DNA of 64,000 nt, taken from the NCBI RefSeq assembly GCF_044324875.1, contig NZ_CP172185.1, one strand, 5' to 3'. Position numbers and translations under genes: made by a program. Every line of letters begins with the position of its first letter. The first letter of the stretch is position 1. Below, piece by piece: positions 646-27,753 of this stretch. The DNA comes from Escherichia coli. GTDB taxonomy: Bacteria > Pseudomonadota > Gammaproteobacteria > Enterobacterales > Enterobacteriaceae. The notes beneath the pieces are model-generated. The model saw nothing but the letters and a program-made list of their open reading frames with translations, made no database searches and was not told the DNA's origin.

Positions 646-687
646 TGAACCGCCCCGGGTTTCCTGGAGAGTGTTTTATCTGTGAAC

Positions 688-1578
688 TCAGGCTGCCAGA
701 TCATCGTTTCCGATGGAAGCATAATAAGATTTTTCTGCTTCTGCCGGTGGGATATGGCCCAGCCTTTCCAGCAATCGTCGATTGTTATACCAGTCCACCC
801 ACGTGAGTGTGGCCAGCTCCACTTCTGTCCGGTTTTTCCAGCTCTTACGGTGTATTACCTCCGCTTTGTAAAGGCCATTGATGCTCTCCGCCATCGCGTT
901 GTCATACGAGTCACCAGTACTTCCTGTTGATGCCAGTAATCCGGCTTCCTTAAGCCGCTGTGTGTAGGCCAGCGATACATACTGAGAACCTTTATCACTG
1001 TGATGGACTGTGCCGGACGGTCGACGGGCCCATAACGCCTGCTCCAGAGCATCCAGCACGAATGTCGTTTCCATAGACGATGAGACCCGCCACCCCACGA
1101 TGTATCCGGCAAACACATCAATGATGAACGCCACATAGACGACCCCCTCCCATGTGCTGACGTAAGTAAAATCAGCCACCCACAACTGGTCAGGACGTTC
1201 TGCCACAAACTGACGGTTTACGCGGTCGCCTGCGGCAACGGCTTTCCGGCTGACGGTAGTGCGGACCTTTTTACCCCGGAGAACACCGGCAAGTCCCATA
1301 ACCGCCATGAGGCGCGCCACTGTACATCTGGCTACCCTGATTCCTTCCCGTAACAACTGACGCCAGACTTTACGCACACCGTATACCTGATGATTCCCAT
1401 CGTATACGCGCAGTATCTCTTTCTTCAGCCAGTCATCGCGCTGCGCACGGGCACTGCGTTTATAAGGATGATGTCGCTGTTGCTGACAGTGGTAATACGT
1501 TGACGGGGCAATATGTAGTTCACTGCATACCGGTCCGACCCCGTACAGCTTACGCAGCTTATCCAGCAGTGGCATCAC
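688..1578 (-). CDS. IS629 transposase OrfB (DDE integrase domain)
   Basis: 296-aa ORF with IS3-family integrase core ([18 protein letters not shown]); 3 aa different from copies 2-4. Confidence 0.85.
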
Positions 1579-1901
1579 TTTTTCCAGAGGCGGTCGAACT
1601 CCGCCTTCGCAAAATAAGCGGAAGCCTGGCGAAGGATATCGTTACTGCGGCGCAGTTCACGATTTTCACGTTCCAGCTCTTTCAGACGCTGACGTTCAGC
1701 GGTGGTGAGCCCGCCATCACCGCCTCCGGTATCCCGCTCATGCTGGCGTACCCAGACACGCAGAGTCTCCGGTGTACAGCCAATCTTTGGGGCAATGGAA
1801 CAAATTGCCGCCCACTGTGAGTCATATTCGCCCTGACTTTCCAGAACCATACGAATCGCCCTCTGACGGACTTCGGGGGAAAAACGAGTATTTTTAGTCA
1901 T
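1575..1901 (-). CDS. IS629 transposase OrfA (helix-turn-helix / leucine-zipper part)
   Basis: 108-aa [22 protein letters not shown]..., overlaps orfB start as in IS3-family frameshift arrangement. Confidence 0.85.
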
Positions 1902-1955
1902 TCTGTTTACCTCTTTCTCAGGGAGTTTAGTCTCCAGGATTCCCGGGGCGGTTCA

Positions 1956-2336
1956 GTACGGCTTGGCGCGGATGGCATCATTGTCTCCAATCATGGCGGA
2001 CGTCAGCTTGATGGTGCCATCCCCACGGCCAGGGCATTACCGGCGATAGCAGATGCAGTGGGTGATGACATCACGGTACTGGCGGATTCAGGTATTCGTT
2101 CCGGTGTGGATGTGGTCCGGATGCTTGCTCTGGGGGCAAAAGGTGTGCTGCTGGGAAGAGCGTATATTTACGCACTTGCCGCTGCGGGAAAAAAAGGCGT
2201 TGAGCACCTGCTCAGACTTTATGCTGAAGATATGAAAGTCACCATGACGCTGATCGGCGCTTCTTCTCCCGCTGATATCAGCAGCAGAAATCTTGAATAT
2301 CTGGAAAAAGAATTCTCCCGACATTCATCATCCTGA
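1956..2336 (+). pseudogene. L-lactate dehydrogenase 3' part (resumes in frame after IS629)
   Basis: Translation from 1956 gives [20 protein letters not shown]...[19 protein letters not shown], the conserved C-terminal half of LldD-type enzymes; joins ..KNAV at 645 when IS and one GTAC copy are removed. Confidence 0.8.
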
Positions 2337-2412
2337 CCAAAGTAAACCAGGCACATATCCTCCATGCTCCCGGGACAACAGAGCGCAGTTCGGGCACTAC
2401 AGCCTTACTGGT

Positions 2413-24689: not shown

Positions 24690-24779
24690 GTAGAGTAAGA
24701 GGCAGGGCGTAGTCGGACTATTTCCCTGCCTCTCCTCCCCGAACCGGACGTGCACCTTTCAGCGCATCCGGCTCTCCAT

Positions 24780-25166
24780 TTAAATGCTGGCGAACGCCAT
24801 TGCCACTTCTGTAAAGCGCGATGTATACGTGTTTCTGGTCTCCGTCCTCAGATAGGGATTACCTTCGGGTAGCCGCCAGCGGAACAGCTTCTTGCCTTGC
24901 CCCACCAACCGGTACAGTATTTCGCCGCTGAGCTTGCCGTGATTGGTTTTACCAAATAAAACCCACGTTTTGCTCTGACCCGGTTTCGGTGATTTACACC
25001 ACCACCTCATCAGGGAAGCGATACCTGTACGGTATTTGCGGGCCAGCCAGTGAGCCAGCTTCCAGAACACGACACGGTCGATATAACTGAAGACTTTGGC
25101 CTTAAAATCAACGAACTGATAGAACATGGCCCAGCCTTTCAGTTTTCGGTTGAGTTGTTCAGCCAT
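24780..25166 (-). pseudogene. Group II intron maturase (X) domain in a different frame from the RT ORF
   Basis: 128-aa ORF; RT ORF ends at 25208 in another frame, so the intron protein is probably frameshifted. Confidence 0.6.
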
Positions 25167-25207
25167 ATCGACTTTGCTTTCACTGTAGTTGCCTGATAAC
25201 AGTGCTG

Positions 25208-26302
25208 TCAGCGATGCGGCGAAGTTTCTGGCTTTCTCCTGCGGGACGTTGAGACCACTCGCATCTCGCCATAACGACTGCGTTTGCGAATGATCCTGTG
25301 CCCCAGAAAGATAAAGCCGTCATTAACATGGGTGATTTTAGTCTTATCCATGTTCAGCCTGAGTTTCAGACTGCCTTCGAGCACACCCCGACACTCCTCC
25401 CTGATGGCTTCCGCCTGTGCTTTGGTGCCTTTGACGATGAGGACAAAATCATCGGCATAGCGGCAGTACGCCACCGCGGGTTTCCACTGCCAGTTTTCTC
25501 TGACCGCCGTACTTCGGCCCCGTTGGATACTGTTATTCCAGTACCACCGATCTTTTCTGGCTTTCCCGCTCAGGTAGCGCTCATGCAGGTATTGATCGAA
25601 CTCATTCAGCATGATGTTCGATAATAGCGGCGATATAACACCGCCCTGTGGCACACCTTCACTGGCCGCCCGAAAGAGACCGACATCGATATGTCCCGCC
25701 TTGATGGTTTTCCACAGCAGAGTCATGAAACGTGCGTCACTGATCCTGCGGCGTACAGCCTTCATCAGCAGTCGATGATGTACGGTGTCGAAGTAACTGG
25801 ACAGGTCGCCTTCAATCACCCAGCGTCCCCGGGTTTCACCACAGTCTGTGAGCTGTAATTTCACCGTGCGGATAGCGTGGTGGACACTGCGCTCAGGCCG
25901 GAAGCCATATGAGAGCGTATGAAAATCACTCTCCCATATCGGCTCCATCGCCATCAGCATGGCCCGCTGAACAATACGATCCCGCAACGTGGGGATACCC
26001 AGTGGTCGCAGTTTGCCGTTGCTTTTAGGGATGTAAACCCGTCTGGCGGGCAAGGGCTGGTAGTGGCCTGAGAGTAATTCATCCCTGAGGATTTGCAGCT
26101 CAACAGCCAGTCTGGCCTGTAGCATTATTTTGTTCACGCCATCAACGCCGGGGGTATGGGCCCCCTTTGATGAAAGCGTGATCCGCGCCGCTTCAGCCAG
26201 CCATTCTGGTTGTGTTATCAGACGCAGCAGCCGTTGAATCCGTAGGGACGGATCGGTGGCTGCCCATGTGGCAAGCTTGCGTTGCATTTCGCTGATTATC
26301 AA
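25208..26302 (-). CDS. Group II intron-encoded reverse transcriptase (RT domain), separated from the maturase domain by a frame change
   Basis: 364-aa ORF with RT motifs (RPLGIPTLRDRIVQ, GVPQGGVISPLLSN, YCRYADDFVLIV); the final residues look out-of-frame. Confidence 0.75.
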   Translation of the reverse strand: MIISEMQRKLATWAATDPSLRIQRLLRLITQPEWLAEAARITLSSKGAHTPGVDGVNKIMLQARLAVELQILRDELLSGHYQPLPARRVYIPKSNGKLRPLGIPTLRDRIVQRAMLMAMEPIWESDFHTLSYGFRPERSVHHAIRTVKLQLTDCGETRGRWVIEGDLSSYFDTVHHRLLMKAVRRRISDARFMTLLWKTIKAGHIDVGLFRAASEGVPQGGVISPLLSNIMLNEFDQYLHERYLSGKARKDRWYWNNSIQRGRSTAVRENWQWKPAVAYCRYADDFVLIVKGTKAQAEAIREECRGVLEGSLKLRLNMDKTKITHVNDGFIFLGHRIIRKRSRYGEMRVVSTSRRRKPETSPHR

Positions 26303-26958
26303 AGGTCTTCACCTCGTTAGGTCAGTTAATTCACGTCGCAAACACATTCAAACTGCTTCCCTTCGCCATGTAATGGGCTTTCCCCATCGCGGACTACTAC
26401 GGAAGCTCCGCCAGCCAGCGCGTCATCGGAGCCATGCCCCCTTAACATCCGTCGCTGACCTTCCCCGGTTTACCGGCCTGGACTCAGGCATACTGAGGAG
26501 GCTGCCCGTCGCACTCTTTATCCTTGCTTGCCGCAAGTTGGCAGAAGTCAGCAACGCAAGCGTGATAGACGCTGCTGCCCCGGTGTTTCGTATACATGTC
26601 AAAACACCTTCGACCGGCAGTGCTTACGTATCACTGCCAGTTCCTCCTGCACGGCCTGTCAGATCACGTAGGCCGTGGTGACGTTTTCAACCCACAGAGG
26701 CGGATTAACGGGTTCATGTTCTTCAGCCTTTCAGTACTTAACCTTGAGGATCATCTCGGCTTAGTGATCTCGCCTCAATCCCCGTTGTCAGCGGGTTACA
26801 TCACCCTGCGGGCATGCCGCAGGTCACTGCCGCTCAGGTTCTCCACCGTCACACCCGGTGGGATTGTTGGGTTTCTCATCGTGAGTTACCGGTTCAATAT
26901 TCCAGACAGACTCGCGGTTCATTTAAGCATCCATGCCCGCCCTGAACTCCGGGCACAC

Positions 26959-27753
26959 CGTAAGTAAAATCAGCCACCCACAACTGGTCAGGACGTTCTG
27001 CCACAAACTGACGGTTTACGCGGTCGCCTGCGGCAACGGCTTTCCGGCTGACGGTAGTGCGGACCTTTTTACCCCGGAGAACACCGGCAAGTCCCATAAC
27101 CGCCATGAGGCGCGCCACTGTACATCTGGCTACCCTGATTCCTTCCCGTAACAACTGACGCCAGACTTTACGCACACCGTATACCTGATGATTCCCATCG
27201 TATACGCGCAGTATCTCTTTCTTCAGCCAGTCATCGCGCTGCGCACGGGCACTGCGTTTATCCGGATGATGTCGCTGTTGCTGACAGTGGTAATACGTTG
27301 ACGGGGCAATATGTAGTTCACTGCATACCGGTCCGACCCCGTACAGCTTACGCAGCTTATCCAGCAGTGGCATCACTTTTTCCAGAGGCGGTCGAACTCC
27401 ACCTTCGCAAAATAAGCGGAAGCCTGGCGAAGGATATCGTTACTGCGGCGCAGTTCACGATTTTCACGTTCCAGCTCTTTCAGACGCTGACGTTCAGCGG
27501 TGGTGAGCCCGCCATCACCGCCTCCGGTATCCCGCTCATGCTGGCGCACCCAGACACGCAGAGTCTCCGGTGTACAGCCAATCTTTGGGGCAATGGAACA
27601 AATTGCCGCCCACTGTGAGTCATATTCGCCCTGACTTTCCAGAACCATACGAATCGCCCTCTGACGGACTTCGGGGGAAAAACGAGTATTTTTAGTCATT
27701 CTGTTTACCTCTTTCTCAGGGAGTTTAGTCTCCAGGATTCCCGGGGCGGTTCA
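26959..27753 (-). mobile_element. IS629 partial copy 5 (left end, orfA, orfB 5' part) truncated at the intron insertion site
   Basis: Terminal repeat ends at 27753; orfA 27373..27699 (one substitution A to V); orfB codons ..[10 protein letters not shown] then intron 5' end. Confidence 0.8.
27373..27699 (-). CDS. IS629 transposase OrfA (copy 5)
   Basis: 108-aa ORF, 1 aa different from other copies. Confidence 0.8.

Follow-up and report, generated by a model that had tools for sequence, protein, structure and literature searches.

The 64,000-nucleotide stretch of Escherichia coli DNA analysed here (hereafter "the window"; contig NZ_CP172185.1 of assembly GCF_044324875.1) contains a chromosomal island in which five copies of IS629, an insertion sequence (IS) of the IS3 family, lie between positions 646 and 27,753. 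Four of these copies are full (1,310 bp) and one is partial (795 bp). Their present arrangement very probably arose by separate insertions that were followed by homologous recombination between inverted copies. This is textbook behaviour for IS629 in a new strain background, and the biology involved is already known; near-identical islands in other strains, however, let each IS629 event be ordered and its mechanism be assigned to the base, which makes the island a clean worked example.

Nearly the same island occurs in three complete E. coli genomes that served as comparators, GF4 (chicken meat, L001), MS 119-7 (human, L002) and 23CRST013 (human, L004), and searches for individual junctions covered 5,426 complete E. 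coli genomes. Compared with GF4, the non-IS629 DNA of window positions 1-26,958 (21,718 bp) shows one substitution (position 19011) and one single-base deletion (position 25247). All structural differences from GF4 in positions 1-27,753 are tied to IS629: copies 1, 3 and 4 are inserted, 612 bp are inverted and 186 bp are deleted. Other deletions, inversions and insertions bounded by IS629 are found in the same island in MS 119-7 and 23CRST013. An earlier interpretation made from the sequence alone (the sequence-only reading) had named recent expansion and recombination of IS629 as the main force shaping the island. For the recent history this holds, but the older scaffold also involves IS911, IS30, IS66 and a group II intron. 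The interpretation is supported with the refinements that copy 5 is bounded by the intron and old, and that copy 1 is a separate allele.

Disruption of hsdS by copies 3 and 4

Evidence for recombination between inverted copies comes from hsdS, the specificity gene of a type I restriction-modification system, which is intact in GF4 and MS 119-7. In the window it is interrupted by copy 3 (17605-18914, minus strand), which lies 4 codons before the hsdS stop, and by copy 4 (19527-20836, plus strand), which lies after hsdS codon ~235. The 612-bp segment between them (18915-19526, plus strand, codons ~236-438) is inverted with respect to the intact gene, and corresponds to the reverse complement of positions 28476-29087 of GF4 L001. 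When this inversion is undone, the junctions read ...CAACC/IS/ACCATT... for copy 3 and ...CCCAA/IS/CAATGC... for copy 4. In this reconstruction against GF4 both copies prove to have retained their 3-bp target duplications, ACC and CAA respectively, but the duplications have been exchanged and stand in reverse-complement form. A direct repeat around one single copy is found only at copy 1 (GTAC, 4 bp), so the claim that copy 1 alone keeps such a repeat was literally right; copies 3 and 4 lack theirs because the 612 bp have been inverted and the duplications exchanged.

The junction between copy 4 and hsdS also occurs in 23CRST013 and is absent from the rest of the 5,426 complete genomes. The 248-residue HsdS::IS fusion open reading frame (ORF) that it creates has exact matches in at least four draft assemblies that carry the junction (GCA_036632015.1, GCA_040713135.1, GCA_027706465.1 and GCA_027946735.1). 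The complete arrangement of copy 3, the 612-bp segment and copy 4, on the other hand, was found in 0 of the 5,426 complete genomes. Since the copy 4 junction is shared with relatives and the copy 3 arrangement is unseen in them, the comparison argues that copy 4 came first and that copy 3 and the inversion followed. Copy 3 is accordingly a new insertion in hsdS confined to this window, and copy 4 a slightly older one.

Insertion of copy 1 and the age of copy 2

Copy 1 (646-1955, minus strand) lies inside the island lldD gene, which encodes an FMN-dependent L-lactate dehydrogenase and is left as a 5' part at 1-645 (plus strand; identified by the Pfam family FMN_dh and by the GF4 annotation of the intact gene) and a 3' part at 1956-2336. 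The gene is uninterrupted in GF4, MS 119-7 and 23CRST013, while here it is split by copy 1 and its GTAC duplication. No genome among the 5,426 complete ones contains the copy 1 junction, and an exact look-up of the LldD::IS629 fusion protein was also empty, although this second negative carries little weight, as contigs built from short reads would stop short of the ORF's end. On this comparison copy 1 is a new insertion in lldD that is present only in this window. The DNA flanking it is identical to that of GF4, yet the IS itself differs from copies 2-4 at 4 sites and carries TT at IS positions 491-492, an allele also present in the GF4 and MS 119-7 copies; this combination points to a separate donor, so that copy 1 was probably copied from another allele and not from copies 2-4.

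Copy 2 (10291-11600, minus strand) has no direct repeat and is flanked by a GTPase gene and an IS30, both of them truncated. Its site is also occupied by IS629 in GF4, the direct repeat being lacking in both strains, and the GF4 copy at the same site argues that copy 2 is the older insertion. The IS30 beside it (11601-12670, minus strand) lacks its last ~150 bp, and is nested in a left-end fragment of IS911 (12671-13005), as in the CP4-6 prophage of K-12. Compared with GF4, a 186-bp deletion abuts the left end of copy 2 to the base and reaches into IS30. Deletions at this end are nested: they amount to 0 bp in GF4, 186 bp in the window and ~1 kb in MS 119-7, where an additional 4.8 kb are gone on the other side of copy 2. 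IS629 is known to give rise to nested deletions that start from its end, and IS629-associated deletions have been described in the literature on the IS-excision enhancer (IEE).

Probable overwriting of resident copies

The copies that share their sites with GF4 are less similar to their counterparts than the surrounding DNA would predict. Copy 2 differs from the same-site GF4 copy at 3 of 1,310 positions and copy 5 at 4 of 795, a sum of 7 differences in 2,105 bp of IS sequence, against 1 in 21,718 bp of flanking DNA. This excess of ~70-fold over the flank rate (0.1 differences expected; Poisson p ~1.5e-11) indicates that, either in this lineage or in that of GF4, recombination or conversion replaced the sequence of the resident copies 2 and 5 with that of other alleles. 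The recency of the insertions rests on their presence or absence in the comparators and not on the identity of the copies to one another.

Proposed history and alternative explanations

Comparison with the near-identical islands shows several layers of events. Copy 5 is a relic of early date into which an intron of the E.c.I4 type homed after IS position 795; the IS911-like 3' exon is most simply explained by recombination between two intron copies, of which one resided in IS629 and the other in IS911. Copy 2 was also inserted early, given that GF4 shares the site. Copy 4 then entered the middle of hsdS, in a state common to 23CRST013 and several drafts, and finally copy 3 was added near the hsdS stop and copy 1 in lldD, both in this window only. 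Three further steps are deduced. Homologous recombination of the inverted copies 3 and 4 would have flipped the 612 bp and swapped the target duplications, a deletion anchored at the IS end would have taken the 186 bp beside copy 2, and copies 2 and 5 would have been overwritten from other IS629 alleles, by recombination or by gene conversion.

Several considerations weigh against this account. Only the 64-kb window is in view, and the donors of the copies, like the number of IS629 copies in the whole genome, lie outside it; the identity of copies 2-4 is by itself no clock, since conversion between copies also yields identity; short reads are unable to orient 612 bp that lie between identical 1.3-kb inverted repeats; and a one-step intramolecular transposition of the inversion type gives an equal final structure of hsdS. 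In such a step the resident copy 4 would have attacked the nearby ACC site in the same molecule, either replicatively or through an IS dimer, and would have generated the inverted second copy together with the 612-bp inversion, without separate homologous recombination. The layout of an outer ACC and inner TTG followed by an inner GGT and outer CAA is the exact product of this type of transposition, copies 3 and 4 are identical, and the occurrence of copy 4 alone in relatives means that one resident copy preceded the pair. IS3-family elements, however, move by way of an excised circle (bioRxiv 10.1101/2023.06.07.543989), a route that yields simple insertions and no inversions, and the larger IS629-flanked inversion in 23CRST013 is best explained by homologous recombination, so that a one-step origin is considered unlikely.

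It may also be asked whether the identity of copies 2-4 stems mainly from concerted evolution by gene conversion, as opposed to recent copying from one master. The ~70-fold excess at copies 2 and 5 suggests that IS sequences of the island are being overwritten, and the process would be partly complementary to separate insertion and recombination. Homogenisation is nevertheless incomplete, because copies 1 and 5 have kept private differences, and the insertions would be recent regardless, with copy 3 in no comparator, copy 4 in 1 of the 5,426 complete genomes and a few drafts, and flanks that are virtually identical. Conversion as the principal cause is therefore rather doubtful, although some share in the outcome would be compatible with the favoured account of separate insertions and homologous recombination. 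An assembly artefact, with the repeats merged into a single consensus by polishing or the intervening segment oriented arbitrarily, is brought to mind by the fact that identical 1.3-kb repeats are a classic point of assembly failure and that every draft with the copy 4 junction is interrupted at the IS. This is highly improbable, since copy-specific variants survive in copies 1 and 5, all 9 junctions are clean to the base, the target duplications rebuild the GF4 sequence exactly, and 23CRST013, a complete genome, independently shows the same IS allele as well as the junction of copy 4.

Identity of the elements and differences among the copies

All five elements are IS629, a member of the IS3 family that measures 1,310 bp when complete. 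They were placed by a repeat scan and exact string comparison, with fragments sought by blastn and local alignment, and the four full copies and one partial copy described in the sequence-only reading were recovered at the same coordinates. The terminal 14-mer TGAACCGCCCCGGG occurs 9 times in the window (4 pairs and 1 solo left end), where 0.05 occurrences are expected by chance, and neither the 14-mer count nor blastn revealed further IS629 ends or fragments in the 64 kb. The termini are of the form TG...CA and constitute imperfect inverted repeats, in which the first 14 nucleotides are alike at both ends and 30 of the first 40 match. Within the element, OrfA (108 amino acids, with an HTH_Tnp_1 domain) overlaps OrfB (296 amino acids, with HTH_21 and rve domains), and an A5G run is located at the orfA stop. 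The ALIL frameshift pseudoknot (Rfam RF01497) is found in all 5 copies at 112-116 bits, and in relatives the same IS629 gene is labelled by RefSeq as a programmed frameshift. The elements thus combine the features of the IS3 family, namely its size and TG...CA ends, a frameshift signal that links orfA (frame 0) to orfB (frame -1), and duplications of 3-4 bp, the last being the length reported for IS629 (PMC3271280). From this family membership IS629 would be expected to move by the copy-out-paste-in route through an excised circular copy (bioRxiv 10.1101/2023.06.07.543989), a route established for the IS3-family member IS911.

The assignment to IS629 is also supported by database records, since the exact OrfB protein is deposited as the "IS629 transposase" of enterotoxigenic E. 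coli (ETEC) H10407. By the ISfinder convention, an isoform has at least 95% nucleotide identity to the reference. The identity to the element annotated as IS629 on pO157 Sakai is 94.96%, which lies at the edge of this usual rule and to that extent counts against the assignment; it marks the copies studied here as another sub-type, and the sub-types of IS629 are 4-5% apart according to Rump et al. (PMC3271280). The setting also differs from that of the Sakai element, in that the host is not O157 and the island is common to strains from chicken meat and of the human commensal type. Among complete E. coli genomes, an IS copy with 100% identity occurs in 23CRST013 alone.

Copies 2, 3 and 4 show 0 differences in 1,310 nucleotides on exact comparison, which bears out, at the nucleotide level, the earlier statement that they encode identical OrfA and OrfB and leaves no divergence among them. 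Copy 1 differs from them by 4 nucleotide changes at IS positions 491, 492, 807 and 1227 (TT at the first two, G at 807 and T at 1227), which produce the OrfB substitutions D39Y, Q144E and A284S and agree with the three previously ascribed to the copy in the lactate dehydrogenase gene. Copy 5 differs by 2 changes at positions 207 and 353, one of them synonymous and the other giving the single OrfA substitution that had been noted, A100V. The idea that the GG allele at positions 491-492 is private to this lineage was rejected, since ETEC H10407 has an identical OrfB.

Copy 5 and the group II intron

Copy 5 (26959-27753, minus strand) comprises only IS positions 1-795. The description of it as partial was correct, but it is no plain truncation, nor does a breakpoint of IS629 recombination mark its end: the copy ends at position 795, the next base is the start of a group II intron (GTGTG), and the IS sequence serves as the 5' exon of that intron. 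IS positions 796-1310 belonging to copy 5 were absent from the window by blastn and local alignment, and IS911-like sequence follows the intron in their place. The intron is of the E.c.I4 type, 2,269 nucleotides long (24690-26958, minus strand), with domains V/VI at 24690-24776, where Intron_gpII (Rfam RF00029) scores 64.9 bits. It has the hallmarks of a group II intron, with domains V/VI, a 5' GUGYG and a reverse transcriptase/maturase ORF, in which RVT_1 and GIIM domains are found in the intact GF4 version. In the window this ORF, ltrA, is frameshifted by the 1-nucleotide deletion at 25247 relative to both GF4 and 23CRST013. The intron is 98.9% identical to the ykfC/eyeA remnant of K-12.

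The exons of the full intron come from two different IS, IS629 on the 5' side and, on the 3' side, the 3' part of an IS911-like orfB (24210-24689, minus strand), whose identity to the pO157 IS911 is 86.5% and which does not resemble IS629 at the nucleotide level. A second E.c.I4 copy, of which only the first 159 nucleotides remain (13006-13164, minus strand), is preceded by the 5' exon of an IS911-like orfB (13165-~13310). Both kinds of 5' exon, IS629 at 26959-27753 and IS911-like at 13165-~13310, and the IS911-like 3' exon thus belong to the homing sites of this intron, E.c.I4 being known to home into the IS3-family transposase genes of IS629 and IS911, its insertion point there being the conserved "D-x-T-Y" region of orfB (PMC3522654). 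The situation here departs from the reported one in that the exons are from different IS elements and ltrA is frameshifted. The simplest reading is that the hybrid exons arose by recombination between intron copies residing in IS629 and in IS911. The state formed by copy 5 and the intron is common to GF4, which argues that it is old.

Two side observations concern the surroundings of the intron. In MS 119-7 (L002 positions 26444-27753 and 29004-30313), a full IS629 lies between intron domains V and VI, with an insertion at window position 29003; this fits an insertion into the intron that was followed by recombination with copy 5. In the window, the IS911 left end split by IS30 (11600-13005) matches the IS911A::IS30A arrangement in the CP4-6 prophage of K-12 at 99.6% identity, and this IS911::IS30 unit is abnormally joined here to intron position 159.

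Relation to known systems and consequences

The elements resemble IS629 (isoforms IS1203 and IS3411) as known from E. coli O157:H7, ETEC and Shigella in their 1,310-bp size, their inverted repeats, the orfA/orfB frameshift and their 3-4 bp duplications, which are often missing. IS629 occurs in many copies, is concentrated in prophages and islands, and drives small insertions, deletions and strain polymorphism (PMC3271280). The exchange of duplications between inverted copies and the nested deletions at one end resemble IS-mediated homologous recombination and IS629-adjacent deletions, which occur with or without IEE. The 64-kb window contains no intact IEE gene, and only a ~330-bp pseudogene fragment with a primase domain is annotated in relatives. 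They place it at window positions ~42450-42775 and assign it to an archaeo-eukaryotic primase-domain ("TOTE conflict system") protein; a relationship to the IEE family is possible.

The genes around hsdS are preserved. The hsdR gene (13387-16404, minus strand) is intact, as is hsdM (21550-23973, minus strand), both being identified by the RefSeq annotation of identical genes in GF4, and an intact DUF4268 gene (16419-17582) follows hsdR. The truncated hsdS ORF (20797-21543, minus strand) contains residues 1-235 and 13 IS-encoded residues, and it has 1 match to the Methylase_S family, where the intact GF4 HsdS has 2. The island is thus recognizable as the carrier of a type I system, with hsdR, hsdM and hsdS together and two recognition domains in the intact GF4 specificity subunit, in which hsdS has here been disrupted. 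The net outcome is that the island loses its lactate dehydrogenase, lldD being split, and that the specificity subunit is disrupted: hsdS is interrupted past residue ~235 and its second half is turned round, with hsdR, hsdM and the DUF4268 gene left intact. The default reading is that restriction and modification would both be lost.

The disruption resembles truncated HsdS variants such as EcoDXXI deltaC: the mobile element has severed hsdS behind the first recognition domain and the central helix, and hsdM and hsdR are still intact. Half-subunits of that kind are able to form dimers that recognise palindromic sequences (table in PMC3874165). By analogy, the half-size HsdS (residues 1-235) might dimerise and give HsdM and HsdR a new palindromic specificity, but this is very unlikely. 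If true, it could explain the persistence of the allele in several isolates and in two chromosomal backgrounds. On the default reading, the island would have lost a metabolic gene and a defence system while its other ~22 kb gained one substitution. The case also holds a caution for annotators, since exchanged duplications can be misread as a copy "without direct repeats", and an intron-bounded copy such as copy 5 as a "truncated" one.

The island and its neighbourhood

The window represents a chromosomal E. coli island with lldD-lldP, a major facilitator superfamily (MFS) transporter, ISEc23, the type I restriction-modification system and sugar-utilisation genes, and with an integrase at ~51-52 kb. 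Positions 1-52900 are 99.8-100% identical to GF4 and 23CRST013, whereas the chromosomal backbone at 54-64 kb, on the right-hand side of the island (phoH, efeUOB, putP and putA), is only 97-98% identical to these strains. This contrast between a near-identical island and a more divergent backbone argues that the island was transferred between lineages, and it seems to have moved with copy 4 already aboard.

Further rearrangements were observed in and beside the island. In 23CRST013 the segment from hsdM to the intron (within L004 positions 22500-31269) is inverted between two IS629 copies, and hsdR is lost. An IS21-family element with a ~6-bp duplication, GCAAAT, occupies window positions 48630-51267 (istA, 548 amino acids; istB, 332 amino acids); it is absent from GF4 and 23CRST013, and so is probably a further private insertion in this strain. 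Between the integrase and phoH (~52940-54175) the IS3, dgcT and pgaABCD of GF4 are missing, and a DUF2726 gene (52946-53632) is found instead, as in 23CRST013. No tRNA genes were found in the window by ARAGORN, while two Rfam families score above their gathering thresholds: Ysr251 at 54224-54417 (plus strand, 191 bits) and RtT RNA at 52716-52852 (plus strand, 46 bits). At ~29428-29903, according to the GF4 annotation, a fragment of the EAST1 (astA) heat-stable enterotoxin gene lies within an IS1414-type transposase gene, and this region is adjoined by an IS3-family fragment at 28352-29335.

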